64,000 nucleotides of DNA from Candidatus Eiseniibacteriota bacterium (GTDB lineage: Bacteria > Arandabacterota > Arandabacteria > Arandabacterales > Arandabacteraceae), in the NCBI GenBank assembly GCA_043810925.1, contig JBDRNT010000161.1, positions 1 through 64,000 of the forward strand, in the 5' to 3' direction. A program made the translations under genes and the position numbers. Positions 24,101-39,356 of the stretch are shown in pieces. The number at the start of each line of letters is the position of its first letter. The stretch's first letter is position 1. The notes under the pieces were generated by a model. That model was not told where the DNA came from. It made no database searches and saw only the letters and a program-made list of their open reading frames with translations.

Positions 24101-24301
24101 AGGAACCTCGAGATATGGCTTGAAGGATGGAGCTTGAGCCTCGCGCAGGTGAACTACTTGCGAACCGGATATCTCACCGACGGGCTACTGGATGTCCATA
24201 TCATAACCGATGAGGATATTGTCAATAAGACAAGCTACGCCTCAAAGATAGGAGCAGTGACTGATCCGGCGAGGCGGCTGTCTTTGGGTGAGCGGAAGTA
24301 A
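21119..24301 (+). CDS. Multidomain protein: GAF-like sensor + PPDK_N ATP-grasp + C-terminal nucleotidyltransferase
   Basis: N-terminal LQEREKELACLY..IPPGWQYP..GPFLKEE; core LGGKSAGL, LIVRSSSLLED, DIEFAHD..LLQCR and SFGTHFF; C-terminal YVFGSTKNATAGPQSDIDL (pol-beta NTase GS..DxD). Confidence 0.88.
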   Translation: MKEHDQRSREIIRFLQEREKELACLYKIEEVTNRPDAGLESVCKTAIKVIPPGWQYPDICVVRITVDGTVYKSKGFKETRWVQCADMVAQNRPLGQICVYYTEERPEADDGPFLKEETRLLKTIAQRIGQFVTLKQVDDVARQHETAGEYLDNGVSAAWRVLMNLVRATDKNLFLTICQKMLNQLAWAGVEEIEEILKTRGMGRVDLEEEALLDENRPHPTMIAPLAEDIGDRVLEIAGRNLPENQILAMIQKWMQEDKLAFLFHVINRDSSLGDLDDTLERYKRVASGARDLGTSTRIGIRVELIRRLLSEQLQYINIAKKYFSIDDFTEILKRLVHSRASHGKLGGKSAGLLLAAQIISESAEDHPDLRNIKIPRTWYIASDAVLEFLSYNNLGEVVEQKYKDIGRVRLEYPHVIQSFKNCRFPPELVRGLSMVLDEFQDRPLIVRSSSLLEDRVGASFSSKYRSIFISNQGTKKQRLEALTGAIAEVYASTFGPDPIEYRAERGLIDFAEEMGILIQEVVGTKVGDYFLPSFAGVAFSRNDFRWSPRIERKDGIVRLVPGLGTRAVDRVANDYPILIAPGQPNLRVNMSTDEIVRYSPVKADVINLKTNAFETVDVRELLRKAGNEIPGIEQMISMYDGEQTRQIMGIGVDYERDDLVVTFDGLVGNTKFVSQMRSALSVLERELQTPVDIEFAHDGKYLYLLQCRAQSYSEDSAPSPIPKDVPERDILFTANKYISNGRIPDITHIVFVDPDGYSNLTDRSDLVEVGRAVSKLNNLLPKRQFILMGPGRWGSRGDIKLGVNVTYSDINNTAVLVEIARRKGEYTPELSFGTHFFQDLVEAGIRYLPLYPDDEGMVFNDRFLRSSANILEDLAPEFEGISETVRLIDVAKASDGRVLRILMNADLNEAIGIFADPSERLSTTPEVGVASQRPVDTYWAWRFQMAEHIARQIDPDRFGVKAIYVFGSTKNATAGPQSDIDLLVHFQGTDNQRRNLEIWLEGWSLSLAQVNYLRTGYLTDGLLDVHIITDEDIVNKTSYASKIGAVTDPARRLSLGERK

Positions 24302-25509: not shown

Positions 25510-25624
25510 TTGACAAATGAAAATGCTCATGATATAATGTCTACTAAGTCGATAGGCAACATAGAATAGCGTTGTCGTTTTTTTGACCACATAAGTCTAT
25601 GTAGTCGATGGGCAACATAGACTT
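25510..25624 (+). promoter_or_regulatory. Consensus sigma70 promoter with two Rrf2-type operator boxes
   Basis: TTGACA(25510)-17-TATAAT(25533). Boxes GTCTACTAAGTCGATAGGC (25539) and GTCTATGTAGTCGATGGGC (25595), both followed by AACATAGA. Confidence 0.8.
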
Positions 25625-25649
25625 CCAAACAACGAGGAGGTGATGTGGC

Positions 25650-26294
25650 ATGAGGAAGGCAGCAGCACTCGCCGGGATCTGGATAGCGGCATTGGTTGTA
25701 GGTACCGCCGTAGGAGCCGGTGATTGGGAGCACTGGGCCGGGGTTGACATCGCGGGGGCGCTGGCTGATGGTCTTACTATCAGAATCGCCCCGGAAGTCA
25801 GAAGCAGAGAGGACTTCACCACTCACTATGAGGGCCACTTCGATACCGGGATTGAGTGGAAGGTGCGTAAGTGGCTGGCGGTGGGTCCGTATTACCGCCA
25901 CGCGACACAGATGAAGGGTGAGTCATGGCAGGTCGAGCACCGACCGCACATGGATATCACTCTGAGCTGGAAATTTCTCGGGCTGCGGCTTGGTGACAGA
26001 AGCCGGCTCGCATACAGGATCATCGACAAGAATGAGTCTCTCAGATACAGAAACAGATTGATGGCGAGGTTTCCGGAGCGAACCCCGGGAGGACTCAGAC
26101 CGTATGTCGGCGAAGAGATCTTCTATGATTTCGACCTTGGCGAGATCAACAAGAACCGGCTGGCCGTGGGATTCGACTTCGCCGTGTCGACCACCACAAG
26201 GCTGGACATCAGCTATCTCCTCGAGAGCGCGAAGAAGTCGGATCACTGGAGTAGCGCCAACGTGTTAAAGACGACACTCATAATCAGACCTTAG
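25650..26294 (+). CDS. DUF2490-like outer-membrane beta-barrel (putative porin)
   Basis: Signal peptide; EHRPH, RSRLAYR, RYRNRL, PYVGEEIFY and KNRLAVG motifs. Confidence 0.8.
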   Translation: MRKAAALAGIWIAALVVGTAVGAGDWEHWAGVDIAGALADGLTIRIAPEVRSREDFTTHYEGHFDTGIEWKVRKWLAVGPYYRHATQMKGESWQVEHRPHMDITLSWKFLGLRLGDRSRLAYRIIDKNESLRYRNRLMARFPERTPGGLRPYVGEEIFYDFDLGEINKNRLAVGFDFAVSTTTRLDISYLLESAKKSDHWSSANVLKTTLIIRP

Positions 26295-26317
26295 AGGACG
26301 GACTGGAGGCAAGTGAA

Positions 26318-27280
26318 ATGAAGAAGATAGGTATCACGCTGTTGGCGGCATGCTTGATTGCCGGTATGGCGGCCCAAGCGGTCGGCGCCGATTCGAAGCC
26401 GTACGAGCTTAAGGGGAGGATTACTTTCTCGGGAGCCTGGGCGCTCTACCCCATGGCCGTAAGATGGGCGGAGGAATTCCAGAAGATCCATCCCGATGTG
26501 AAGATGGACATTGGCGCAGGCGGGGCCGGCAAAGGTATGGCTGACTGCCTGGCCGGCGTCGTGGATATCGGCATGGTCTCGCGACAGATATACCCCGAGG
26601 AGGTCAAGAAGGGGGCCTGGTGGGTCTCGGTGACCAAGGACGCCGTTGTACCGACGGTCAATGATGCCAACCCCGTTCTTAAGGATCTGCTCGCTAGAGG
26701 AGTCACGCGGGAGGCCTGCATCGGCATCTGGACAACCGGTGAGATCAAGACCTGGGGCGACCTGACAGGCCGCCCACTCTCCTCCCCGATTCAGGTCTAC
26801 ACCCGCTCCGATGCCTGCGGTGCGGCGGGGACGTGGGCTCAGTATATGGACAGGGGACAGGAGGACCTTCTCGGAATCGGCGTGTATGGCGACCCCGGAC
26901 TGGCCCAGGCGGTAAGGCAGGATCAGCTGGGGATCGGCTACAACAACATCAACTACGCCTACGATGCCAAGACCAAGGCCCAGATCCAGGGTATACGAGT
27001 CCTGCCTATCGACACTGACGGCAACGGTAAGATCGACGAGGAAGAGGATTTCTACCTGACACGGGACGGGATCGTTAAGGCGATAGCCACGGGTAAGTAT
27101 CCGTCACCGCCGGCCAGAGACCTTCATTTTGTGTGCAAAGGCAACCCGGAGAACGAGGTAGTGAGGGAATTCATCAGATGGGTGCTGACCGACGGCCAGA
27201 AGTACGTGCACGAGTCCGGCTACATCAACTTGACCGAGGAGAAGCTCCTTGAAGAGATAAAGCACCTTCAAGGTGAATGA
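26318..27280 (+). CDS. pstS: PstS-family ABC substrate-binding protein (atypical)
   Basis: Signal peptide; SGAWALYP, GAGGAGKGM, DIGMVSR, YTRSDACGAA and YPSPPAR. Confidence 0.8.
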   Translation: MKKIGITLLAACLIAGMAAQAVGADSKPYELKGRITFSGAWALYPMAVRWAEEFQKIHPDVKMDIGAGGAGKGMADCLAGVVDIGMVSRQIYPEEVKKGAWWVSVTKDAVVPTVNDANPVLKDLLARGVTREACIGIWTTGEIKTWGDLTGRPLSSPIQVYTRSDACGAAGTWAQYMDRGQEDLLGIGVYGDPGLAQAVRQDQLGIGYNNINYAYDAKTKAQIQGIRVLPIDTDGNGKIDEEEDFYLTRDGIVKAIATGKYPSPPARDLHFVCKGNPENEVVREFIRWVLTDGQKYVHESGYINLTEEKLLEEIKHLQGE

Positions 27281-27326
27281 TGTTGACACCGACTGTTGAT
27301 TATCTTGTACCGGGGGAGGAATCATC

Positions 27327-28220
27327 ATGCAGAGCATGAGGTTGCTCGGAGACAGACTGGCAGGGAAGCTGATGCTGGTCCTGACGGTTTTCTCCGGCTT
27401 GCTCGTATTCATGATGGCCCTTGGTCTGTATCAGCGGTCCCGGCCGATTCTTGCCATGAAACCCCTGAGCGAGCTCCTATTCTCCCAGTCCTGGCATCCC
27501 CTGAGGGGCGAATTCGGCTTCTTCTCTTACATCATGGGAACGCTCTGGGTAACGGGGGTGGCCGTCGCTATCGCCGTCCCCTTGTGCATGCTGACCGCGA
27601 TATATCTCTCCGAGTATGCCCATCGAAAGGTCCGCGCCTGGACAAGCCCGTTGATTGACCTGCTCGCGGGTATCCCGTCGGTTGTATACGGGATGTGGGG
27701 TGTCCTTGTAGTCGTTCCCTTGATCAAGAACCATATAGGACCGTTCTTCGGAGTGATGTCCAGCGGGTACAGCGTCATGGCCGGAGGCATCGTTCTGGCA
27801 ATCATGGTTTTTCCGATAATCATTCACGTTTCGGTGGAAGTGCTCAAGTCCGTGCCGTATGAGGTCAGGGAAGCTTCCCTCGCACTCGGCGCGACGAAAT
27901 GGCAGACCGTCAAGCATGTGGTCATGCGCAAAGCCATGCCGGGTGTGATTGCCGCCATCGTCCTGGGGCTGTCACGGGCGTTCGGGGAGACTATGGCCGT
28001 TCTCATGGTGGCAGGGAACGTCGCGAAGGTTCCTTCGTCGGTCTTCGACCCGGCATATCCCCTCCCCGCACTGATCGCTAATAACTATGGGGAGATGTTG
28101 TCTGTGCCCCTTTACGATTCGGCACTGCTGCTGGCGTCTCTGGTATTGCTGTCGGTCGTCCTCGTTTTCAACGTGATATCTCGAATCATCCTTGTCAGAG
28201 TAGAAAGGAGCATACGCTGA
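27327..28220 (+). CDS. pstC: PstC-like ABC permease
   Basis: AIYLSEY, LAGIPSVVYG, EASLALGAT and SRAFGETMAV. Confidence 0.92.
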   Translation: MQSMRLLGDRLAGKLMLVLTVFSGLLVFMMALGLYQRSRPILAMKPLSELLFSQSWHPLRGEFGFFSYIMGTLWVTGVAVAIAVPLCMLTAIYLSEYAHRKVRAWTSPLIDLLAGIPSVVYGMWGVLVVVPLIKNHIGPFFGVMSSGYSVMAGGIVLAIMVFPIIIHVSVEVLKSVPYEVREASLALGATKWQTVKHVVMRKAMPGVIAAIVLGLSRAFGETMAVLMVAGNVAKVPSSVFDPAYPLPALIANNYGEMLSVPLYDSALLLASLVLLSVVLVFNVISRIILVRVERSIR

Positions 28221-29072
28221 ATGGGTATGCGAAGAGCAGAGGAAAAAGTGTTCAGGGCCCTTATGCTTGTATCCACGCTGCTGATCCTCTCAACACTTGT
28301 GCTCATCATGGTAACGGTAGTTGTGAGGGGCCTGCCTGCCATGGATCTGGCAATGGTCACGCAAACCCCGAAGGGTGGGTTCTACCTCGGGAAGGAAGGC
28401 GGCATACTGAATGCGATCGTCGGGTCGCTCTACCTGGCAGGAGGAGCAACCGTTCTGGCGATCCTGATCAGTCTCTCGGTTGTCCTGTACCTCAATGTGT
28501 ATGCGGCAAAAACGTCGCGCCTGGCGGCATTCACGCGATTCTCCTTCGATGTGTTGTGGGGCGTCCCATCCATTGTCTACGGAGCGTTTGGATTCACGAT
28601 CATGGTCTTTCTTGGACTCAGAACCTCCCTCCTGGCCGGGATCATAGCCGTAGCGCTCCTGATCCTGCCCATGATGAGCAGGGCCATGGACGAGGTAATC
28701 AGAATGGTTCCGCGAGAGCTCTATGAAGCGTCCTATTCACTCGGAGCAACACGATTGGAAACCGCCGTCAAAGTGATCACCAGACAAGCACTGCCGGGAA
28801 TCCTCACGGCGATACTCATCTCCTTCGGCAGGGGAATCGGCGATGCCGCCTCCGTCATATTCACAGCGGGATTCACGGACTCGATACCGTATTCGCTGTT
28901 GCGGCCGGCTGCGACGCTGCCTCTGGCAATCTTCTTCCAGCTCGGGACTCCGATACCCGAGGTTCAGGAGCGGGCATACGCCTCGGCACTCGTGCTGACA
29001 GTACTGATCCTAATAATAAGCCTCGCAGCGAGGACGCTTTCACGCAAGTTCACCAGGCACATAGTCAAATAG
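28221..29072 (+). CDS. pstA: PstA-like ABC permease
   Basis: GGILNAIVGS, GVPSIVYGAFG and EASYSLGAT. Confidence 0.9.
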   Translation: MGMRRAEEKVFRALMLVSTLLILSTLVLIMVTVVVRGLPAMDLAMVTQTPKGGFYLGKEGGILNAIVGSLYLAGGATVLAILISLSVVLYLNVYAAKTSRLAAFTRFSFDVLWGVPSIVYGAFGFTIMVFLGLRTSLLAGIIAVALLILPMMSRAMDEVIRMVPRELYEASYSLGATRLETAVKVITRQALPGILTAILISFGRGIGDAASVIFTAGFTDSIPYSLLRPAATLPLAIFFQLGTPIPEVQERAYASALVLTVLILIISLAARTLSRKFTRHIVK

Positions 29073-29081
29073 GAGATTGCC

Positions 29082-29843
29082 ATGAAGTTCAGATCACACA
29101 TCAGCGTTCGGAACCTCAATGTATTCTACGGGCGTGAGCAGGCACTGAAGGACATCAACGTCGACATCCCGGACAGGAAAATAACCGTGATAATCGGACC
29201 TTCCGGCTGCGGCAAGTCCACACTCCTCAGGTCCTTCAATCGCCTTGTGGACTCGGTCCATGGAGTGAAGGTCTCCGGTCAGGTTCTCCTGGACGGCGAG
29301 AACATATTCGATCCGGGAACCGAAGTCACACGCATAAGGAAGAAGATGGGACTGCTTTCACAGAAGCCCTACCCGCTGCCGATGTCGATCTATGATAACG
29401 TCGCCTACGGCCCGAGGATCCACGGGACCAGGAAGAGGAAAGAACTGGACCGCATCGTCGAGCATTACCTCAAGCAATCAAGCCTGTGGGGCGAGGTCAA
29501 AGACAGATTGCACTCTCCGGCATCAGATCTTTCGGTTGGCCAACAGCAGCGCCTGTGCCTGGCCCGAGGACTGGCTGTCGAACCTGAGATTGTCCTCGGT
29601 GATGAGCCTACCTCGGCCCTCGACCCGAGGTCGAGTCAGCGCATCGAACAGAGGTTCCTCGAGCTTAAGAAAGACTACACGATTGTTATCGTCACCCATA
29701 TCCTGCGACAGGCGATGAGGCTTGCCGACTACGTTCTATTCCTCTACCTCGGCACGTTGGTCGAGCACGGGCCTGCACGAGACATCTTTGAACATCCCCA
29801 GCAGGAGCTGACCAGGGAATACATTAAGGGAACCATAAGTTGA
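29082..29843 (+). CDS. pstB: PstB-like ABC ATPase
   Basis: GPSGCGKS, SIYDNVAYG, LSVGQQQRLCLAR, DEPTSALDP and TREYIKG. Confidence 0.93.
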   Translation: MKFRSHISVRNLNVFYGREQALKDINVDIPDRKITVIIGPSGCGKSTLLRSFNRLVDSVHGVKVSGQVLLDGENIFDPGTEVTRIRKKMGLLSQKPYPLPMSIYDNVAYGPRIHGTRKRKELDRIVEHYLKQSSLWGEVKDRLHSPASDLSVGQQQRLCLARGLAVEPEIVLGDEPTSALDPRSSQRIEQRFLELKKDYTIVIVTHILRQAMRLADYVLFLYLGTLVEHGPARDIFEHPQQELTREYIKGTIS

Positions 29844-29926
29844 CCGGGACACTGCCTCGGCGATGAGGCTTGCAGGTTTGATCTCAATTTCATAGATCCC
29901 AGCCGCCTGCTGTCGCTCGCACCTGG

Positions 29927-30394
29927 TCACTGACGCGGCGGAGCCTGCGTGAACCTGGCCTTGGCACTGGCCATGACATTTCCTTCATACACCAGCGTTG
30001 CCGCCACACGATAAAGCTGAGGCTTCACGGAAAGCAACCACGCTGTCACCTCAAGCAGAGCGTCGCACGGGACTGCTCTAAGAAAGCGGACATGCAGGTC
30101 CGCAGTGACTGCCCGTACGCCGTGATGAAACAGGCAGTGTGTCATGGCCGCATCCAGCAGCCCGCTGATAACACCACCATGCAGAATCCCGTCGTATCCC
30201 TGAAGCCCTGGGTGTGCCTCGAACCGGGACCACACCTTGCCTGTGTCTCGGACCTCGAAACGCAGACCCAGAGACCAGGGATTCCGACCACCACACATCA
30301 GGCAGTTGACATGCCCGTCCCCGGAGCCACCGGCAATGCGCTGTTCGCCGGCTGCAGACCGCTCCTGTGCGGTTACCTTCCTATTACTCTTCAG
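29927..30394 (-). CDS. PaaI-family hotdog-fold thioesterase (start codon uncertain)
   Basis: CLMCGGRNPWSLGL..QGYDGILHGGVISGLLDAAM..VTADLHVRF. Confidence 0.82.
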   Translation of the reverse strand: MKSNRKVTAQERSAAGEQRIAGGSGDGHVNCLMCGGRNPWSLGLRFEVRDTGKVWSRFEAHPGLQGYDGILHGGVISGLLDAAMTHCLFHHGVRAVTADLHVRFLRAVPCDALLEVTAWLLSVKPQLYRVAATLVYEGNVMASAKARFTQAPPRQ

Positions 30395-30752
30395 CCGATT
30401 CCGCTCCCATCTCCGCCAATCTGCTCTTAACGGCGGCGAGTTGCTGCTCGAGGTTAGTGATCTCACTCTCCAGGAACGCTTTCTCTCCAACGGGCGCTGC
30501 GGCAGAATATGGTACTCCACCTCCGTACGGGGCCACCGCATATGCGACCCCTACTCTCCGCCACCTGCCACGGCCACCACCAAATGCCCGTCCGCGGCCA
30601 CAACCCCAGGGGATTCCACCACGACCCACGCCATACACGACTCCGGGCACGTAGCCCCCCTGTGAGCGACCTGCGCCAGGACCGCAGAGGCCAAAGCCGC
30701 CGCCCGTTCTCGAACCCAGGCCCCTCGGGCCCGTTCGGTCAAACCCTGGCAT
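30384..30752 (-). CDS. DUF5320-family Gly/Arg-rich protein (orp-cluster associated)
   Basis: MPGFDRTGPRGLGSRTGGGFGLC N-terminus, a GRGG-rich middle and a C-terminal coiled coil. Confidence 0.88.
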   Translation of the reverse strand: MPGFDRTGPRGLGSRTGGGFGLCGPGAGRSQGGYVPGVVYGVGRGGIPWGCGRGRAFGGGRGRWRRVGVAYAVAPYGGGVPYSAAAPVGEKAFLESEITNLEQQLAAVKSRLAEMGAESAEE

Positions 30753-30835
30753 GACTTACCTCCTCTCACCAATGACAAGATTGCCGACCTCACAACCCTA
30801 CCCATCCCTACCCTCTCCACACTCCCAGGTAGGGG

Positions 30836-30850
30836 GCATCAATCATGCCA
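30836..30850 (-). promoter_or_regulatory. Sigma54 (-24/-12) promoter
   Basis: Minus strand TGGCATGATTGATGC (GG-N10-GC), with an AT-rich tract upstream. Confidence 0.75.
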
Positions 30851-30945
30851 GATTGCAATCCGGGGAATATTATGTTATTTGCTTATATAGTAAGGGAGTA
30901 TGATGGAAGTCGTGACTCTGACGGTATTACGGTTATGATGAGTGA

Positions 30946-30981
30946 TGTATCAAAATGAGACTGGCATTTCAATGTGGTACA
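30946..30981. promoter_or_regulatory. Enhancer (UAS) palindrome for the sigma54 activator, copy A
   Basis: TGTATCAAAATGAGACTGGCATTTCAATGTGGTACA; matches copy B at 32853. Confidence 0.75.
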
Positions 30982-31059
30982 GTAATTCCATGACAGTCTG
31001 CCGGTGCGACTGTCGGCGGTAATTACCAAACTGGCACCGAATTATGGGGAGATGATTCA

Positions 31060-32802
31060 ATGCGTGAAGACAGAAGCAAGGGACCTGGAGCGCTGGATCT
31101 TGTCCATCTGATCGACGGCGTCATGGTGCTGGATAGCGGAGGAACGGTAGTCGCCTTTAGCGAGGGTGCCGAACGCATAACCGGTTTCATGACCAGTGAG
31201 ATTGTCGGTAAGACCTGCCAGGAGGTGTTTCGATCGAGCACCTGTGAGATCGCATGCCCCGCCCGACGAACCTTCGAAACGGGAGTGGTCTTATCCAACT
31301 GCCGGTGTCATATATGCACGAGAGATGATTGTGAGATAGAAGTCGCGGTCAACACCTCACCGCTCCGGGGAAGTGACGGCACGATTGTTGGCGCAGTCGT
31401 CGTCTTTCGTAATCTCAATGAGATGATGGAGATGGCAATTGAGTTGACTGAGCTCAGCCATGAGATCATCAGAGAGAAAGAACGTTCGGAGGCAATCATA
31501 AACAGCATTGCCGATGGGGTCTTCACGCTGTCCACCGATATGACCCTGACATCCTTTAACAAGTCGGCCGAAGCGATAACCGGCTATAGTGCGGAGGAGG
31601 TTCTCGGTAAGCCCTGCAAGAACATATTCAGAAGCAAAGGCTGTGACCAGATCTGCCCGGTAAGACAGATGCTGGTGAGCGGCAGACCGGTGACCGGCGT
31701 TGAGATGGAAATGACAACAAAGAACGGGGTGAAGGTGCCTGTGAGTATGTCTACGGCAGTGCTCCGTGATGAGACCGGTGACGTGATCGGCGCCGTGGAG
31801 ACGTTCAGAGACCTCTCGACGGTCAAGACACTCACCGAGGAGCTCAGAGGGAAGTACTCGTTCAGGAACATCATAGGCAAGAGCCACAAGATGCGTGATG
31901 TGTACCAGCTGATAAAGTCTGTGGCCCCCACCAATGTGACCGTCCTGATCCAGGGCAATACAGGAACCGGCAAGGAGCTGGTCGCCAGAGCCATACACTA
32001 CGAAAGCCCGCGGGCTGATAAGCCTTTCGTTGTTGTGAATTGTGCCGCATTGCCTGAGACCTTGCTTGAAAGCGAGCTCTTCGGCCATGTGAGGGGGGCT
32101 TTCACGGGAGCAATCGCGGACCGGAAGGGCCGATTCGAAAGAGCCGATGGGGGAACAGTGTTCCTCGATGAGATCGCGGAGGTGAGCCCGGCAATTCAGG
32201 TCAAGCTCCTCAGAGTACTTGAGACCAAACAGTTTGAAAGAGTTGGAGACAGCCAGACAAAGGGAGTGGATGTCAGGCTCGTGTCTGCTACAAACAGGAA
32301 TCTCAAAGAGCTTATAGGTAGGGGCGAGTTCAGGGAGGATCTCTACTACAGAATCAACGTGGTTGCGATCAATCTTCCACCGCTGAGAGAGCGCGATGAA
32401 GACATTCCACTCCTCGTCGATCACTTCGTAGAGAAGTTGAATGCCGACACAGGAAAACACGTGAGACAGGTATCCCAGGGGGCGATGGATGTGCTGATAG
32501 ACCATGTCTGGCCGGGGAACGTCCGGGAACTGGAGAATGCGATCGGTCACGCGTTCGTCCATTGCCGCGGTGACACAATCCTGCCGGAGCACCTGCCACG
32601 GGAACTGGTCGAAGTCACGCCGCATGCCGCAAGCGGGATGGCCTCGGCAGGCTCAATTGAAGAAATGGAAAAAGCCGCGGTCACGGATATGCTCAAGAGG
32701 TGTAAAGGCAATCGAAGTCAGGCTGCCCGCCGCCTGGGCATAGGCCGGAGCTCACTCTGGCGCAAGATCAAGAAGTACGGTCTGACCCACTCCCCTGACT
32801 GA
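31060..32802 (+). CDS. PAS-PAS sigma54-dependent transcriptional activator (OrpR-like)
   Basis: Two Cys-rich PAS domains (CQEVF..CEIACP; CKNIF..CDQICP); [33 protein letters not shown] and a Fis-type HTH. Confidence 0.92.
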
Positions 32803-32852
32803 TTCGGATCTGATCTGCCACCGGCTTGACAAAGAAGTCGACCGCGCACACT

Positions 32853-32888
32853 TGTACCATATCGAAACGGCCGTTTCATCATGGTACG
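32853..32888. promoter_or_regulatory. Enhancer (UAS) palindrome, copy B
   Basis: TGTACCATATCGAAACGGCCGTTTCATCATGGTACG. Confidence 0.75.
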
Positions 32889-32983
32889 CCAATCTCAGAG
32901 CACGGACATACTCAACGGTATGTCGTCATTCTTAACATCTTATTATATAAGCAATTAGAAGCATAGCCGATTGTTATGGACTC

Positions 32984-32998
32984 CGGCACGGACAATGC
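32984..32998 (+). promoter_or_regulatory. Sigma54 (-24/-12) promoter of the orp-like operon
   Basis: CGGCACGGACAATGC (GG-N10-GC); an AT-rich, IHF-like tract at about 32930-32960. Confidence 0.75.
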
Positions 32999-33027
32999 CT
33001 ATTAGACCACATGAGGAGGTGGGAAAG

Positions 33028-33762
33028 ATGAAAATCGCTATTTCGTCAACCGGACAAGGACTTGATGCTGAGATGGATCCGCGATTTGGCAGATGTCAGT
33101 ACATCATTGTCGTTGATACTGACACGATGGAGTTTGAAACGATCGAGAACCCGAACATCATGGCTTCCGGCGGCGCCGGAATCCAGAGCGCCCAACTCAT
33201 TGCTGAAAAAGGCGTAGGTGTCGTGCTGACCGGAAACTGCGGCCCCAATGCCTTTCAGACGCTCCAGGCAGCCGGAATACCGGTTTGTGTGGGTGTTGGG
33301 GGGACGGTACGGGAAGCCGTTGAATTGTACAAGAAAGGTGAGATCTCCCCAAGCCAGGCACCCAGTGTGGCCGAGAAGTTCGGATCGAGGGGTGGACCCC
33401 AGGTCGACCCGGGAGGTGCACAGGGCACTCCCGACGGGCAGACTGAGCCCGGTGCGGATGATGGGATGGGACGTGGCATGGGTGGCGGGATGGGGCGAGG
33501 TGCGGGAAGAGGTATGGGCGGCGGGGGCATGGGACGCGGGACGGGGAGAGGTATGGGAAGAGGAACGGGCAGAGGCATGAGAAGAGGTATGGGAATGGGC
33601 TTCGGGGGCATTCTCAGCTCAAGAATAGATCCGGGGTATACAGGGGCAGCCGGTTCCGGTGATGAACTCAGTGACCTCCGGGGTCAGGCATCGGATTTGA
33701 GGACGGAGCTTGACCGGATTCACCAGAGAATCGATGAACTTGAGAGAAACCGGGGGAAATGA
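33028..33762 (+). CDS. NifB/NifX-family (orange protein-like) domain fused to GRGM repeats and a coiled coil
   Basis: MKIAISSTG..DPRFGRC..GGAGIQSAQ..LTGNCGPNAF; a GMGRG-repeat tail; RBS GAGGAGGT. Confidence 0.88.
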   Translation: MKIAISSTGQGLDAEMDPRFGRCQYIIVVDTDTMEFETIENPNIMASGGAGIQSAQLIAEKGVGVVLTGNCGPNAFQTLQAAGIPVCVGVGGTVREAVELYKKGEISPSQAPSVAEKFGSRGGPQVDPGGAQGTPDGQTEPGADDGMGRGMGGGMGRGAGRGMGGGGMGRGTGRGMGRGTGRGMRRGMGMGFGGILSSRIDPGYTGAAGSGDELSDLRGQASDLRTELDRIHQRIDELERNRGK

Positions 33763-34625
33763 GCATGAAGATCGTAGTCGCCAGCGGGAAGGGCGGTACG
33801 GGAAAGACCACGGTGGCCGTGGCCCTTGCTCTGGCGCTTAGGAAAGAGGTGGACCGGCTCCAGTTTCTGGACTGCGATGTTGAGGAGCCAAACGCAGAAC
33901 TGCTGCTCAAGCCGGTTCTGACCGAGAGCAAGCCGGTCACCGTATCTATCCCGGAAGTGGACTCAGGCAAGTGCACAGGGTGTGGCAGGTGCCGTGAGAT
34001 ATGTGAATACAACGCCGTCGCGGTGGTCAGTGAGAAGGCACTGATCTTTGAAAACCTTTGCCATGCGTGTGGTGGATGCAGGCTCGTGTGCCCGGATGAC
34101 GCCATAACCGAAAAAGCAAAGGTGATCGGCAGGATCGACGCCGGAAGCCGGGACAATGTGCACTTCCTCAGGGGAGTACTCAATGTAGGGGAGCCTATGG
34201 CGACACCGGTCATACGCGCGCTCAGGGGCGAAGCCACCGATGATGCTCTTACGATACTTGATGCGCCACCGGGAACCGCATGCCCTGTGATCGCCACAGT
34301 CAAAGACTGTGACTACTGCATCCTTGTAACCGAGCCCACGCCTTTCGGACTCTACGACCTCAACCTGATGGTCGAAGTGGTGAAAGCACTCGGCATTCCA
34401 ATGGGCGTGGTCATAAACAAAGATGACACCTGGAGCACGCACATCGAGGAGTATGCTTCAGAAAACGATATCCCGATTGTCATGAAAATCCCCCTAAGCA
34501 GAGATATCGCAGTGTTCTACTCCAACGGTGTACCGCTCAACGAGGCTGATGGGCACTGGGATGAGGACTTCCTTCATCTCTATGAGGGTATTGGGAGACA
34601 GATATGGCAAAACCAATCGAAATAG
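33759..34625 (+). CDS. MinD-superfamily P-loop ATPase with inserted ferredoxin domain (Orp3/4-like)
   Basis: SGKGGTGKTT, DCDVEEPN, two CxxCxxCxxxC motifs, DAPPGTACP and VTEPTPFG. Confidence 0.92.
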   Translation: MSMKIVVASGKGGTGKTTVAVALALALRKEVDRLQFLDCDVEEPNAELLLKPVLTESKPVTVSIPEVDSGKCTGCGRCREICEYNAVAVVSEKALIFENLCHACGGCRLVCPDDAITEKAKVIGRIDAGSRDNVHFLRGVLNVGEPMATPVIRALRGEATDDALTILDAPPGTACPVIATVKDCDYCILVTEPTPFGLYDLNLMVEVVKALGIPMGVVINKDDTWSTHIEEYASENDIPIVMKIPLSRDIAVFYSNGVPLNEADGHWDEDFLHLYEGIGRQIWQNQSK

Positions 34626-35518
34626 TCGTCGTAAGCGGCAAGGGGGGCACGGGAAAGACCGTTCTTGCATCTTCTCTGGCTGCTCTTATAGACGATCTGG
34701 TCGTGGCGGACTGCGATGTTGACGCCCCCGACATGCACCTGCTCCTCGAGCCGACGATAGTGAGGCATGAGGTTTTCTCAGGATCCAAAGTCGCTTCGAT
34801 CGACCCCGATACCTGCATTTCCTGCGCTACGTGTGCTGAGGTCTGCCGCTTTGGAGCGGTGAACGAGGAGATCAGCGGCAAGGCCCGGGCTTACTCGATT
34901 GACGGCCTTGCCTGTGAGGGATGTGGGGTTTGTGCATGGAACTGTCCTTCAGGTGCGATAGACCTCGGGGATGCGCCCACCGGTAACTGGTACGTATCCC
35001 GGACCCGCTTCGGCAAGATGATCCACGCCAGGTTGGGCGTCGCGCAGGAGACATCAGGAAAACTCGTGACGGTTGTACGAAGGGAGGCAAGGTGTACCGC
35101 CATTGCAGACAGGACCACATTCGTCCTGATCGACGGTCCTCCGGGCATAGGCTGTCCTGTCATAGCATCGATTGCCGGGGCGGATCTTGCTGTCATAGTC
35201 ACGGAGCCCACGCTGTCGGGGCTCCATGATCTCAAGCGGATCCTCGGACTCACCAAGCATTTTGAACTCAGGACCGCCGTAGTCATAAACAAGTATGACC
35301 TTAATAGTGAGATGTGCACACAGATACAGGGATTCCTGGAAGAACAGAAGATACCTCTTGCCGGCAAGATCAGGTTTGATGGGCAAGTCAACAAAGCGAT
35401 TGCCGCCGGGAAGACGATTGTCGAGTATTCTGACTCAGAGGCAGCCCGTGAGATAAAGCGTATCGCGGACTGGATAACCAGATCAATTCACACAGGGCAG
35501 GGAGCTAGGACCCGCTAA
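34604..35518 (+). CDS. MinD-superfamily P-loop ATPase with inserted ferredoxin domain (partner subunit)
   Basis: SGKGGTGKT, DCDVDAPD, two 4Fe-4S motifs, DGPPGIGCP and VTEPTLSG. Confidence 0.92.
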   Translation: MAKPIEIVVVSGKGGTGKTVLASSLAALIDDLVVADCDVDAPDMHLLLEPTIVRHEVFSGSKVASIDPDTCISCATCAEVCRFGAVNEEISGKARAYSIDGLACEGCGVCAWNCPSGAIDLGDAPTGNWYVSRTRFGKMIHARLGVAQETSGKLVTVVRREARCTAIADRTTFVLIDGPPGIGCPVIASIAGADLAVIVTEPTLSGLHDLKRILGLTKHFELRTAVVINKYDLNSEMCTQIQGFLEEQKIPLAGKIRFDGQVNKAIAAGKTIVEYSDSEAAREIKRIADWITRSIHTGQGARTR

Positions 35519-35528
35519 GGATGGGAGG

Positions 35529-36830
35529 TTGACCATGGTATCGGTGGCCGGCGACGCGGCAACAGGCCGCGACTTCAAGGAGAGAACACAATCGCACGAG
35601 GAGCGGAAGCTGAGAATCGAAGAGAGGATGGCACAGGTCAAGCACAAGTTCATTGTAATAAGTGGTAAGGGGGGCGTGGGTAAGAGTACTGTCGCTGCCT
35701 ACGTAGCAGCTTCACTTGCCGCCGATGGGAACTCCGTGGGACTGCTGGACACGGACATTCATGGACCGAGCATTCCCAAGATGCTTGGGCTTGAGGATAG
35801 TCGTGTGACTGCAGCGGGTGAAACCATAATGCCCATCCCGTTTTCCAAGAACCTGAGTGTCATGTCGATCGGTTTTCTCCTCAGGTCGAGTAAGGATGCA
35901 GTGATCTGGCGCGGCCCAATGAAGATGGGAATCATAGAGGAGTTTCTCGGGAATGTGGAGTGGGGCCCTCTGGACTACATGATAATCGACTCTCCCCCCG
36001 GTACGGGAGATGAACCCCTGTCGGTCTGCCAGCTGATACCCGGGCTTGACGGTGCTATCGTCATAGCAACTCCGCAGGAGATCGCCCTCGTTGATGTTGA
36101 GAAGTCGATATCGTTCTGTCGCCAGCTCAATATACCCGTGTTCGGTGTGATCGAGAACATGTCGGGTTTCATATGTCCACATTGCGGCGAGAAGGCCGAC
36201 ATCTTCAAGAGCGGCGGCGCCGAGGCTCTTGCAGCCGAGGCCGGGGTTCCATTTCTTGGACGGATACCTATCGTACCTGAGGTTGTGGATGCATGTGACG
36301 CGGGAGCATGCTCACTGGCAAGCATCGCATCCGACCCGTTCAAGCAATCCCTCAAGGCTATAACCGATAGCATTCTTAAAGCGGCGCCGGCCACATCCGG
36401 ACCTGAGGTCCCCGAACCGGCGGCGGAACCGGACAATGACGCCGGCAAGACCTTGCCCGCCGGACACGAAGCTTCCCATTTGGAGGGAGCTGCGGTTCAG
36501 CGCATCGCTCTGCCTCTAGACGGTGATCGCCTGAGTACACACTTCGGCCACAGCACACGATTCGCAATCTATTATGTCGAGGGGAGCAAGATAATCGGCC
36601 AGCGGGATCTTACACCGCCACCCCATGCCCCAGGGGTCATTCCTTCGTGGCTCAAGGAACAGGGGGTCGGTGTAGTTATCGCCGGCGGACTGGGAGGGCG
36701 GGCAATCGCAGCCTTTGAGAGCTCGGGCATTACCGTAGTCTGCGGGGCACCACCCGAAGACCCCAAAGATGTCGTTTCGGCTTATCTCAAGGGTACCCTG
36801 GCGGCAGGTGAGAACATCTGCGACCACTGA
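35529..36830 (+). CDS. Mrp/NBP35 (ApbC) Fe-S carrier ATPase fused to a C-terminal NifX-like domain
   Basis: SGKGGVGKST, VIWRGP, DSPPGTGDE and ENMSGFICPHCG; C-terminal HFGHS..PPPHAPG..GENICDH. Confidence 0.92.
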   Translation: MTMVSVAGDAATGRDFKERTQSHEERKLRIEERMAQVKHKFIVISGKGGVGKSTVAAYVAASLAADGNSVGLLDTDIHGPSIPKMLGLEDSRVTAAGETIMPIPFSKNLSVMSIGFLLRSSKDAVIWRGPMKMGIIEEFLGNVEWGPLDYMIIDSPPGTGDEPLSVCQLIPGLDGAIVIATPQEIALVDVEKSISFCRQLNIPVFGVIENMSGFICPHCGEKADIFKSGGAEALAAEAGVPFLGRIPIVPEVVDACDAGACSLASIASDPFKQSLKAITDSILKAAPATSGPEVPEPAAEPDNDAGKTLPAGHEASHLEGAAVQRIALPLDGDRLSTHFGHSTRFAIYYVEGSKIIGQRDLTPPPHAPGVIPSWLKEQGVGVVIAGGLGGRAIAAFESSGITVVCGAPPEDPKDVVSAYLKGTLAAGENICDH

Positions 36831-36875
36831 TGGTTTAGGGCTTAACGGTCGGAGTGCTCATTGTGGAAAAATAGC

Positions 36876-36923
36876 TTGACGCAGGCACAACTGTACTCTA
36901 TAATGTCTATGGACATAAGAGAC
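36876..36923 (+). promoter_or_regulatory. Sigma70 promoter of the Rrf2 gene with an autoregulatory box
   Basis: TTGACG-17-TATAAT immediately followed by GTCTATGGACATAAGAGAC. Confidence 0.78.
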
Positions 36924-36934
36924 TAGGGGGACAA

Positions 36935-37336
36935 GTGAGACTGACTACCAAGAGTGAGTATTCGCTGCTGGCACTGATCTACATAGCCCGGGCCGGAAAG
37001 AATACCTATGTCAAGATCGAGGATATCTGCCGGGAGCACGACATCTCGAAGAAGTATCTGGAGCACCTTCTTATGATTCTCAGGCAGAATCGATATCTGC
37101 GGACTCGAAGAGGAGCACGCGGAGGCTACGCTCTTGCCAAGCCGGCGTCAAAGATCAGCGTAGCCCAGGTCATAAGGCTGATGGATGGTGCTCTGGCTCC
37201 TACCGAGTCGGTCAGCATGTATTTCTACTCGGAGACTCCGCTGATGAATGAGAAGAAGATAATCGCTGTCTTTAAGGACATCCGCGATTACGCATCAAAG
37301 CGATTGGAGAGCCTTAAGCTGTCGCATCTGGTCTAG
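36935..37336 (+). CDS. Rrf2-family regulator lacking the C-terminal Fe-S cysteines (CymR-like)
   Basis: TKSEYSLLAL, ISKKYLEHLL, RGARGGYALAK and IRLMDGALAP. Confidence 0.92.
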   Translation: MRLTTKSEYSLLALIYIARAGKNTYVKIEDICREHDISKKYLEHLLMILRQNRYLRTRRGARGGYALAKPASKISVAQVIRLMDGALAPTESVSMYFYSETPLMNEKKIIAVFKDIRDYASKRLESLKLSHLV

Positions 37337-37602
37337 CGAACATCGTATGGGAATAGGTCGCCGCACGAACGCAAGAAGCAGGTGACTCAAGTGGATGAGA
37401 AGCTGATACTTCTAATGCCCCTGGCCTTTGCGTTTTTCCACCACGGTGTCCGCAACGTCGATTTCAACCCATGTTCCAAGGACACGAAGCCTGCCGCCGT
37501 CCTCTCATCACCCGGCGATAGTCCCGAATCTCGGCCGTCTCACTCCGGTGAGAGTCTCTCTACGCAGACAGGGCAACTGACGCTGGACAAGGCAGAAGCC
37601 AA

Positions 37603-38481
37603 ATGAGCACCTCCAGGATAGTCATTGCCAGTGGAAAGGGAGGCTCCGGGAAGACCACGGTGGCGACGGCGCTCGTGATGACACTTATGAGGGAGATGCC
37701 GGAAGTCCAGCTGGTCGACTGCGACGTCGAGGGACCCGACGCCGCCCTGTTTCTCAAGCCCGAGATCGAGAGTTCAACTCCACTGACCATAGACTTTCCT
37801 GAGATCGCTGCGTCTCAATGCTCCGGGTGTGGTGACTGTCAGTCTGTCTGCCAGTTCGGGGGAGTCAGCGTCGTATCGGGGGTAGCCGAGCATTACAGCG
37901 ACCTTTGCCATGCCTGTGGTGGTTGCAGCCTTGCGTGTCATGCCGGTGCCATCACCGAGAAGAAGAAGCGTATCGGTGTGATAGAAAGCGGGAGAAGAGA
38001 AAATGTGGTCTTCCACAGAGGTGTCCTTGACGTCGGGCGCCATATGGTCACTCCCATAATACGTGGACTGAAATCTATAGCGCGTGGCGACTTACCTACG
38101 ATACTGGATTCCGGTCCGGGGACTGTCTCACCAGTGATCGCGACTATCAAAGACTGTGACTACTGCATTTTGGTCACGGAGCCGTCACCGTTTGGGTTGT
38201 ACGACCTTAGAATCGCCGTAAGGCTCGCCGGTGAGATCGGCGTCCCCACCGGGATCGTCATAAACAAGGATGAGGCTTGGAGCTCCAACATTGAGCAATA
38301 TGCATCTGAGATGGACATTCCCATAATTCTGCGTATACCTTTCCGGCGGGAGATCGCCTCCTTATGCTCCAGGGGCATCCCTCTCACCGAGGTGGCCTCC
38401 TCGTGGGATGAGGCGTTTTGGGACATGTATGCAAGAGTTGAGAGGACGATATGGGAAAGCCGACCGAGATCGCCGTTATAA
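37603..38481 (+). CDS. MinD-like ATPase with ferredoxin insert (paralog of 33759-34625)
   Basis: SGKGGSGKTT, DCDVEGPD and two 4Fe-4S motifs; long identical stretches with the paralog (KDCDYCILVTEP). Confidence 0.9.
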   Translation: MSTSRIVIASGKGGSGKTTVATALVMTLMREMPEVQLVDCDVEGPDAALFLKPEIESSTPLTIDFPEIAASQCSGCGDCQSVCQFGGVSVVSGVAEHYSDLCHACGGCSLACHAGAITEKKKRIGVIESGRRENVVFHRGVLDVGRHMVTPIIRGLKSIARGDLPTILDSGPGTVSPVIATIKDCDYCILVTEPSPFGLYDLRIAVRLAGEIGVPTGIVINKDEAWSSNIEQYASEMDIPIILRIPFRREIASLCSRGIPLTEVASSWDEAFWDMYARVERTIWESRPRSPL

Positions 38482-39356
38482 GTGGTAAGGGGGGTGCCGG
38501 GAAGACGGTACTCGCGGCATCCCTTGCCAAGAGCACTCCGGGCAGTGTGGTGGCTGATTGTGATGTCGATACCCCGAACATGCATCTCTTGCTGAAACCC
38601 AATCTCATGAGCGAACACGCGTTCTTCGGCGAGAAGACAGCTGTTATGGACGGCGAGCTTTGCACACGTTGCGGAGATTGCTTCAGAACATGCCGCTTCG
38701 GTGCGATAAGAGAAATAGACATACCTGCCGGTTGGTCGTATTCCGTAGACGCTTTGTCCTGCGAGGGGTGCGGCGTATGCACTATGGTGTGCCCCGAAGA
38801 CGCCATCCTCATGAAAGACGCACGCGCAGGTGCTTGGTGTGTGTCGAGTTGGGACTTGGGGCCATTTGTTCATGCACACCTGACTTCTGCCCGGAAGAAC
38901 ACTGAAACACTCGTCAGAATCCTCCGGCGAGAGGCCAGCAAGATAGCGGGTCGCGAGGGACGGAGACACATAATAATCGATGGGCCTGCCGGTATAGGGG
39001 CCACCGTAGTTGCTGCGGTTGAAGGGGTCTCGCTCGCCGTGGTGGTAACTGAGCCCACTGTGTCCGGGATTAACGATCTGCGCAGGCTGATACGCCTTGT
39101 GCAGCAGATTGGCATAAGAACAGCCGCGGTGATAAACAAGTACGACCTGAATACAGAGGTCACCCTGGCAATCGAGGAATACCTGTCAATCAACGGTGTC
39201 CCGCTCCTGGGCAAGATCTGCTTCAGCACTGAACTCAATCGAGCAGTCGGAGCGGGCGAAGTCGTCGTTAATGCCGGGGACGATTCAGCAACACAGGCAC
39301 TCAGGGGAATATCCAACCGGATACTTGGACTCGCGGCCCGAGAAGTGCAGACATGA
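38451..39356 (+). CDS. MinD-like ATPase with ferredoxin insert (paralog of 34604-35518)
   Basis: SGKGGAGKT, DCDVDTPN, two 4Fe-4S motifs and VTEPTVSG. Confidence 0.9.
   Translation: MGKPTEIAVISGKGGAGKTVLAASLAKSTPGSVVADCDVDTPNMHLLLKPNLMSEHAFFGEKTAVMDGELCTRCGDCFRTCRFGAIREIDIPAGWSYSVDALSCEGCGVCTMVCPEDAILMKDARAGAWCVSSWDLGPFVHAHLTSARKNTETLVRILRREASKIAGREGRRHIIIDGPAGIGATVVAAVEGVSLAVVVTEPTVSGINDLRRLIRLVQQIGIRTAAVINKYDLNTEVTLAIEEYLSINGVPLLGKICFSTELNRAVGAGEVVVNAGDDSATQALRGISNRILGLAAREVQT

Follow-up and report, generated by a model that had tools for sequence, protein, structure and literature searches.

The locus described here raises a simple question: does an operon that resembles a phosphate (Pst) importer actually transport phosphate? 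It lies in a 64,000-nt stretch of DNA, hereafter the window (contig C161:1-64000), from the assembly GCA_043810925.1 of a Candidatus Eiseniibacteriota bacterium, a genome of 3.85 Mb in 185 contigs with 56% G+C that is 91.7% complete. The DUF2490-pstSCAB-like operon (25510..29843, forward strand) consists of a promoter and five genes, and 7 kb downstream of it the window encodes a regulator of the Rrf2 family. A first-pass annotation, made from the sequence itself, had proposed that one type of operator serves both the operon and the rrf2 gene and that the transporter has been repurposed for a sulfur oxyanion or another oxyanion. Our analysis leads to a related view, namely that the operon probably encodes a Pst-descended ATP-binding cassette (ABC) importer, most likely for sulfate, that would be repressed by a Cys-less Rrf2 protein through 28-bp operator blocks.

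The substrate-binding protein (26318..27280, forward strand) is a PBP_like_2 protein of what we call the SGA(W/F)ALYP clade, with a PstS fold and an altered anion site. The SGAWALYP and GAGKG motifs to which the first-pass annotation had drawn attention are indeed present, at residues 38-45 and 69-73. The protein falls below the cut-offs of both PstS models, with 119.2 bits on TIGR02136 (cut-off 206.6) and 66.6 bits on TIGR00975 (cut-off 205); canonical PstS proteins in other genomes score 243.6-358.3 bits. A structure model with a mean pLDDT of 88.9 displays the two-lobed PstS-type fold, and its top Foldseek matches are phosphate-binding proteins (best 4jwo, E 1.9e-23). Since the predicted structure matches solved PstS proteins best, its descent from PstS is clear.

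How far the anion site has diverged can be judged by comparison with Clostridium perfringens PBP-1, for which the published account lists phosphate contacts by S11, T12, S13, S41, S59, R125, S129, G130, and T131 (PMC5381212). We mapped these residues onto the window binding protein by a HMMER alignment and counted how well they are conserved among loci from other species. Scanning one genome from each species gave at least 597 matching stretches, at least 522 of which encode a relative of the binding protein; the locus set comprises the best 80 of these at least 522 loci, in 77 of which the binding-protein gene was called by our own rough gene calling. Six of these nine contacts are replaced and five of the six hydroxyl donors are lost. 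S11, S13, S41, and T131 correspond to A40, A42, A70, and A169, each of which is alanine in 77/77 loci, while T12 corresponds to W41 (W in 42 and F in 35 of the 77) and S129 to C167 (C in 74/77). The three kept residues, S88 (S59 in PBP-1), R163 (R125), and G168 (G130), are invariant in all 77. According to the same account, S13 is the proposed acceptor of the phosphate proton (PMC5381212), and it is this residue that A42 replaces. Because the proton acceptor is lost, the site would suit an anion that carries no proton, an argument that draws on the classic comparison of phosphate and sulfate receptors cited there. The PstS fold, the scores below cut-off, and the six replacements all favor the earlier proposal of a Pst-derived, probably non-phosphate transporter, and we consider it quite likely that this is not the phosphate system.

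As for the control of the operon, its promoter (25510..25538, forward strand; TTGACA-17-TATAAT with TG) is a full consensus promoter as had been claimed, with 12/12 positions, and the rrf2 promoter (36876..36904, forward strand; TTGACG-17-TATAAT) matches 11/12. The three boxes noted in the first-pass annotation were all located where it had placed them: GTCTACTAAGTCGATAGGC at 25539, immediately 3' of the −10 of the pst promoter, GTCTATGTAGTCGATGGGC at 25595, a second copy in the pst leader, and GTCTATGGACATAAGAGAC at 36905, immediately 3' of the rrf2 −10. The operator unit is larger: two 19-bp palindromes (GTCTAT-N7-ATAGAC), offset by 9 bp, overlap to form a block of 28 bp. Operator block 1 (25539..25566, forward strand) follows the −10 directly and contains two such palindrome-like sites (25539-25557 and 25548-25566), each with 10/12 palindrome positions. 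Block 2 (25595..25622, forward strand), a 28-bp unit with a terminal inverted repeat GTCTATG...CATAGAC, lies in the 5' leader, 56 bp downstream of block 1. The block at rrf2 (36896..36923, forward strand) overlaps the −10 box and includes the site originally noted at 36905-36923. The idea that the box occupies the same repressor position in both promoters therefore stands only in part: the operator is shared, but the best register at rrf2 starts 9 bp further upstream, at 36896, and contains the −10, so that the position of the box differs between the two promoters.

That the shared operator is real follows from the comparison with relatives and from a 28-bp matrix based on 14 boxes that precede the homologous operon, taken from other genomes only, with which the own genome was scanned whole on both strands. 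This independent matrix ranks the rrf2 promoter first (36896, 30.2 bits) and the operon promoter second (25539, 26.4 bits), and seven of its nine best genome matches fall within the pst and rrf2 promoters. An initial 19-bp matrix, which was circular in that it contained the window's own sites, was superseded by it. The degenerate pattern of the first-pass annotation, with three matches against 0.14 expected, is likewise circular since it was derived from the same three sites; used as a genome-wide probe it proved too loose, finding three further matches on other contigs, none with promoter-like sequence in the flanks examined, and was discarded. The −10 of the operon promoter in six genomes that share the family or order is followed at once by a GTCTAY..AGTCGATA......GTAGAC-type sequence, and two genomes in which DUF2490 is the first gene (G013 and G007) also have two blocks before it. 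The same design, GTCTATAAT....ATAGAC, is seen before rrf2 genes in loci of other phyla, in a comparison that covered 13 of 15 rows. The 18,847 nt that precede these operons contain 14 copies of the strict motif CTAY-N7-RTAG, compared with 48 copies in the full 978,179 nt of locus sequence.

It had been expected that a genome scan with the motif would uncover cys, suf, or isc genes. This is not what we found: in the box scans of the own genome, good boxes occur only at the operon and rrf2, and none at cys, suf, or isc genes. Four further box candidates were rejected as regulon members, having no sulfur link: C22:16758, before an AcrB-type gene; C89:64341, before hrcA and a GntR-SpoIIE gene; C45:24486, before a biotin carboxylase gene; and C17:10529, before an unannotated open reading frame. 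The first of them (C22:16758-16785), which overlaps the start of the AcrB-type efflux gene, is the third-best operator-like match (21.1 bits) and may be chance or a minor regulon member. Of the four relatives with rrf2 as the first gene of the operon, three have a conserved hairpin-like element, GGAAAC..CGACTA...TGATAG..GTTTCC (L016:770-810, L018:4770-4810, and L019), between rrf2 and pstS, possibly another operator or else a structured RNA.

The protein predicted to act on these boxes, and to repress both the operon and its own gene, is a 133-residue Rrf2-family regulator of the Cys-less type (36935..37336, forward strand). Its family membership is clear (98.9 bits on PF02082, cut-off 30; 108.5 bits on TIGR00738, cut-off 73.3). 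It has a single cysteine, Cys32, which is kept in 13 of 16 members of its clade, and none of the usual cluster ligands. At the three aligned Cys-ligand positions, where 34 of 54 aligned rows have CCC, it has S, T, and K. The description of the regulator as CymR-like and devoid of iron-sulfur (Fe-S) ligands is thus accurate, with the proviso that it is CymR-like and not CymR. Rrf2 regulators without Fe-S ligands, such as CymR, control sulfur and cysteine supply.

An Rrf2 gene stands within a few genes of the binding-protein gene in 45/77 of the other-species loci, and the 45 proteins divide into 15 of the Cys-less and 30 of the 3-Cys type. A maximum-likelihood tree was computed from 52 rows with 120 residues or more, the two shortest Cys-less rows being left out, and in it the window protein falls inside a clade of 16 Cys-less rows with a support of 100/99. 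Thirteen of these 16 head the operon, the loci belonging to Planctomycetota, Omnitrophota, Kiritimatiellota, or Verrucomicrobiota, and twelve of the full-length ones are 61-72% identical to the window Rrf2. Since its orthologues in the same clade head the operon elsewhere, the window rrf2 is a detached orthologue of the operon's own regulator. In four genomes of the same family, the orthologous operon begins with an Rrf2 gene and has the box right after the promoter −10, while in G013 and G007, where DUF2490 comes first, orthologues with 82% and 78% identity to the window Rrf2 are found elsewhere in the genome, standing alone beside peptidase and FlgD-like genes. The link between Rrf2 and the operator is therefore very likely, and we infer binding of the box and repression from the position of the box, over or after the −10, and from the known behavior of the family.

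In the window, rrf2 sits inside an ORP-type cluster (31060-39356) that also comprises a PAS sigma-54 activator (31060-32802), a NifX-like/DUF5320 protein, MrpORP (35529-36830; 499.4 bits on NF041136, cut-off 450), and two MinD-ferredoxin pairs, which flank rrf2. It had been suggested that the transporter feeds this neighboring Fe-S cluster. We reject such a link between the transporter and the ORP/MrpORP Fe-S genes because the Rrf2 orthologues of G013 and G007 have unrelated neighbors. Two more Rrf2 genes lie elsewhere in the own genome (G000:C52:38785-39243 and G000:C89:13663-14106). One of the pair is near, and transcribed opposite to, a gene block with a cysteine synthase-like gene (64% identical to a Bacteroidota neighbor), and the other adjoins a class-V aminotransferase (IscS/NifS-like) gene.

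Which anion is transported is best approached through the genes that accompany the operon in other species. Unlabelled neighbors of the 80 loci were clustered, and one representative of each cluster with at least three loci was compared with Pfam. The largest cluster (33 loci) is a Porin_O_P-family porin encoded just upstream of the operon; after it, the top clusters are GTP_EFTU proteins of ~422 residues and PAPS_reduct proteins of ~231 and ~301 residues, which we read as putative CysN, CysH, and CysD, respectively. In six Bacteroidota loci, cysH follows pstB on the same strand after 38-48 nt, and in five of them cysD and cysN come next, the sixth locus ending after cysH. One locus contains, in a row, genes for O-acetylhomoserine sulfhydrylase and cysteine synthase, pstSCAB, cysH, cysD, and cysN. 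Overall, the neighborhood analysis of the SGA(W/F)ALYP clade that had been proposed as a check brought up, beside Rrf2, cysH, cysD, or cysN near the operon in 11/77 loci. Genes for cysteine synthase or O-acetylhomoserine sulfhydrylase were present in four loci, three of which have them right beside the operon.

In several of these genomes other anions are already provided for. G007 has phoB-phoR-pstS-pstC with a PstS of 358.3 bits on TIGR00975 (cut-off 205), and three of five genomes from other phyla have, alongside the variant (109.9-139.2 bits there), a PstS above cut-off (261.1, 243.6, and 341.3 bits). G041 and G044 have ModA equivalogs (162.4 and 190.1 bits, cut-off 62.5) in addition to canonical PstS and the variant, so that phosphate and molybdate already have dedicated receptors there. 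As cysH-cysD-cysN lie directly downstream of the operon in Bacteroidota loci and canonical PstS and ModA coexist with the variant in other genomes, sulfate is the most likely substrate, which agrees with the sulfur oxyanion favored in the first-pass annotation. Sulfate or thiosulfate, which the present data do not distinguish, is in our judgment the probable substrate.

Data from the own genome and its relatives are consistent with this. The orthologous operon is present in the own genome and in eight of 40 other genomes searched (E 1e-86 or better), 41 genomes in all; neither the transporter nor an Rrf2 orthologue was found in G001, which is of the same genus and 86% complete. ATP sulfurylase and adenosine 5'-phosphosulfate (APS) kinase are present in the own genome, and no match to SulP, SBP_bac_11 (Sbp/ModA-type), or PHO4 was found in it. 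The two activation genes lie in G000:C157:1-14500, with three genes of the type I phosphodiesterase/sulfatase-like kind and one for a glycosyltransferase around them. Within families f1 and f2, SulP occurs in 0/7 carriers of the transporter vs 3/9 non-carriers, with one of the three matches being strong. ATP sulfurylase is found in 9/9 carriers and in 19/32 of the other genomes; because so many non-carriers have it too, we discarded this co-occurrence as discriminating evidence, only a necessary condition being satisfied. A survey of SBP_bac_11 in relatives is ambiguous since the family covers both ModA and Sbp. In a genome of Fidelibacterota, a distant Sbp-like protein (L108/L164, G043:C1:1489892-1490644; 79.5 bits on TIGR00971, below the cut-off of 155.5) is encoded ~3.5 kb from the variant pstS.

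Several observations weigh against a sulfate importer under Rrf2 control. The cys-gene neighborhoods are confined to a single phylum, Bacteroidota, and cannot be counted as independent. Neither cysH nor cysD was found in the own genome with the queries used, and TIGR02039 (CysD) had no match in the window's family; sulfate there may therefore feed sulfation dependent on 3'-phosphoadenosine-5'-phosphosulfate (PAPS) and not cysteine synthesis. The own sat-cysC region has no good box in the genome box scans. ATP sulfurylase is nearly universal in the window's family, with or without the transporter (11/12), and G024 has both SulP and the variant system. The window permeases reach 34-51 bits on sulfate permease models (CysT/CysW and related), the cut-offs of which are 240-415, and the PstC-type permease (27327..28220; 268.1 bits on TIGR02138, cut-off 196.45), the PstA-type permease (28221..29072; 206.2 bits on TIGR00974, cut-off 193.45), and the PstB-type ATPase (29082..29843; 343.9 bits on TIGR00972, cut-off 343.2) are all above phosphate equivalog cut-offs. 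While at least one PBP_like_2 protein occurs in nine of 13 genomes of the window's family, several of which have two or three, the variant is the only one found in the own, 92%-complete genome, which leaves room for a phosphate role in this organism. The own genome has Mo/W enzymes, yet no ModA or TupA was found in it. Finally, the operon-adjacent Rrf2 proteins in the window's own family are of the 3-Cys type and only 33-37% identical to that of the window.

Among the other explanations, the one that survives best, unlikely as we consider it, is that the importer serves another tetrahedral oxyanion (molybdate, tungstate, thiosulfate, or selenate) instead of sulfate. The changes from Ser/Thr to Ala would be expected to enlarge the pocket, and the near-invariant Cys167 of the site also speaks in its favor. 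Among the enzymes of the own genome are molybdopterin oxidoreductases and an aldehyde:ferredoxin oxidoreductase, and no ModA/WtpA-type protein or second PBP_like_2 protein (TupA-type) was found in it; because of these Mo/W enzymes and the lack of a recognized Mo/W transporter among those searched for, molybdate or tungstate keeps some weight for this genome. The operon also lies near the ORP cluster with its MrpORP, and ORP clusters have been tied to a Mo-containing protein. However, this neighborhood is absent from the examined loci of relatives, ModA equivalogs occur alongside the variant in G041 and G044, and the conserved neighbors include sulfate-activation genes and no molybdenum-cofactor or tungsten cluster. 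Thiosulfate cannot be separated from sulfate on such grounds.

It is improbable that the operon still encodes a phosphate importer, that is, a second kind of Pst with a remodelled, perhaps lower-affinity site in which Rrf2 has replaced PhoBR. The scores of PstC, PstA, and PstB fit such a system, as do the top rank of PstS structures in the fold search, the lone PBP_like_2 protein of the own genome, where PitA (PHO4) was not found, and the Porin_O_P-family genes that precede the operon in 33/77 loci. Solved PstS sites also vary: PBP-1 lacks an Asp-mediated short hydrogen bond (PMC5381212), and a second type of site is reported (PMC13614923). Here, six of the nine contacts are replaced by non-hydroxyl residues in a manner uniform over 77 loci, and the binding protein scores far under the PstS cut-offs. 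Moreover, canonical PstS is found in the same genomes, together with phoBR in G007, and in some loci the operon is joined in operon-like fashion with cysH-cysD-cysN. As the first-pass annotation had stated, the operon has no phoU: none was found in it or after pstB by gene calls and a domain scan of the window, and no PhoU protein appears among the neighbor clusters of at least three loci. Nor did we find signs of control by PhoU or PhoBR, the promoter having Rrf2-type palindromes instead, though no formal Pho-box scan was run. PhoB above cut-off was not found in the own genome (best 204.6 vs 296.2), with a cut-off so strict that only two of 14 control genomes pass it. The only PhoU domains found in the own genome belong to two Na/Pi cotransporter-PhoU fusions, which are probably its route of phosphate uptake. 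These cotransporters of 714 and 686 aa (G000:C124:755-2899 and G000:C37:47628-49688) have two C-terminal PhoU domains each, and one of them also has a Big_1 domain.

It is highly improbable that the boxes are an RNA leader element or the sites of another regulator, with the likeness of the rrf2 promoter a by-product of shared promoter sequence: although they lie within a transcribed leader with a T-run after block 1 that folds mildly better than shuffled sequences (z = −2.93, 1/200 shuffles as good), and although the operon boxes are alike for 3-Cys and Cys-less Rrf2 proteins that are only ~35% identical, the palindromic element has the symmetry expected of a site for a dimeric DNA-binding protein, the box at rrf2 overlaps the −10 and is thus partly upstream of any transcript, Rrf2 is the sole regulator that travels with the operon (45/77 loci), no terminator passes in a scan of the leader, and a search of the whole window against Rfam at gathering score gave 0 matches, so that no known riboswitch or leader explains the boxes.

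We thus return to a sulfate importer repressed by Rrf2, for which the following mechanism may be proposed. The DUF2490 protein would form a probable outer-membrane channel serving the Pst-type ABC importer, the binding protein of which would have been re-fitted for a fully ionized tetrahedral oxyanion, most likely sulfate. The Cys-less Rrf2 would bind the 28-bp GTCTAT-N7-ATAGAC blocks, two at the operon (after the −10 and in the leader) and one over the −10 of rrf2, and would repress both the operon and rrf2 when sulfur is sufficient. Binding of the box, repression, and sulfate as the substrate are all points that we infer from sequence comparison.

Set beside known systems, the operon is closest to PstSCAB of the E. 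coli type, the nearest solved binding protein being C. perfringens PBP-1 (PDB 4GD5/4Q8R). It shares with PstSCAB the four-part architecture, the fold of the binding protein, permeases and an ATPase above phosphate cut-offs, and the anion-site residues R163, D165, S88, and G168. It differs in its low-scoring binding protein, with six of the nine PBP-1 contacts replaced, in having no adjacent phoU or PhoBR genes and Rrf2 instead, and in that the variant coexists with canonical Pst in other genomes. With CysPTWA/Sbp it would share the role, high-affinity sulfate uptake that feeds sulfate activation, as the fusion of cysH-cysD-cysN to the operon in Bacteroidota loci suggests. However, it belongs to another transporter family, as its sulfate permease scores indicate, and the own genome has no SBP_bac_11 match; the likeness is one of proposed function, not of membership.

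The regulator can be compared in the same manner. Like CymR of Bacillus subtilis and Staphylococcus aureus, it belongs to the Rrf2 family, lacks the three Cys ligands, and has a sulfur-uptake operon as its predicted target. With 73.4 bits on the CymR equivalog model NF047409 against a cut-off of 195, it is no CymR orthologue, and its predicted regulon in the own genome consists of the transporter and rrf2 only. CymR needs to be in complex with CysK to repress, and its repression responds to O-acetylserine; CysK-like genes are present in the own genome. A further difference from CymR is that, in other lineages, this genomic position is taken by a sister group of IscR-like Rrf2 proteins of the 3-Cys type. 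Regulators of the IscR/NsrR type share with the window protein the winged-helix family and a palindromic operator of ~19-28 bp at a repressor position, and the operon-adjacent Rrf2 proteins of relatives have the three aligned cysteines. In contrast, the window Rrf2 has S, T, and K there and scores 66.7 bits on the IscR model (cut-off 207.55). The system would therefore combine a Pst-family transporter with an unnamed Rrf2 lineage, and is proposed to work like CysPTWA under CymR while being a member of neither.

The variant binding protein is widespread, its clade being represented in no fewer than 522 species genomes of one collection and by 8,000 or more protein clusters, and it is annotated throughout as phosphate-binding. 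We see about an even chance that this cross-phylum "PstS" clade is the binding protein of an unrecognized importer for sulfate or a sulfur oxyanion, derived from Pst and under its own Rrf2 lineage that switches between Fe-S-bound and cluster-less forms. The literature we searched, which left most subscription journals outside its coverage, contained no description of a Pst-like sulfate importer under Rrf2 control. Should the substrate be sulfate, an entire branch of the Pst family would have exchanged its anion, a clean natural case of re-tuning in which the hydroxyl donors and the proton acceptor were removed and the Arg-Asp pair was kept. The label "phosphate ABC transporter" would then have to be corrected on thousands of proteins from uncultivated anaerobes. 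Many metagenome "pstS" calls may be wrong, with pstS counts as a marker of phosphorus stress being inflated in anoxic habitats. The importer would also supply the missing step of sulfate uptake in Bacteroidota, Planctomycetota, Omnitrophota, and others, giving a route to lineages that have sulfate-activating enzymes and no recognized sulfate transporter. As for the regulators, the analysis provides a predicted operator and regulon for an uncharacterized Rrf2 lineage, the 3-Cys and Cys-less forms of which make the sensing mechanism testable.

The first gene of the operon (25650..26294, forward strand) encodes the DUF2490 protein (PF10677, 86.4 bits), named a porin in the first-pass annotation, which may be an outer-membrane anion channel. 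A DUF2490 gene stands beside the operon in 11/77 related loci, compared with Porin_O_P in 33/77; both families accompany the operon, and among the gene maps examined (loci L038-L117) no locus has both. The permease and ATPase genes, of which the former encode BPD_transp_1 proteins, follow on the same strand, and pstB, the last gene, is directly followed by a convergent thioesterase gene. On the other side, just upstream of the operon's divergent metallophosphoesterase gene, the window encodes a 1060-residue protein (21119-24301) that is an unusual fusion of PPDK_N (phosphoenolpyruvate-utilising, ATP-binding) with a C-terminal nucleotidyltransferase domain. In four loci from Chrysiogenia/Chrysiogenales and Aminicenantes (L095, L100, L106, and L112), the variant pstS is followed, instead of by pstC, by a gene for a 339-375-residue protein, the cluster representative of which has no Pfam match, and then by an integrase gene.

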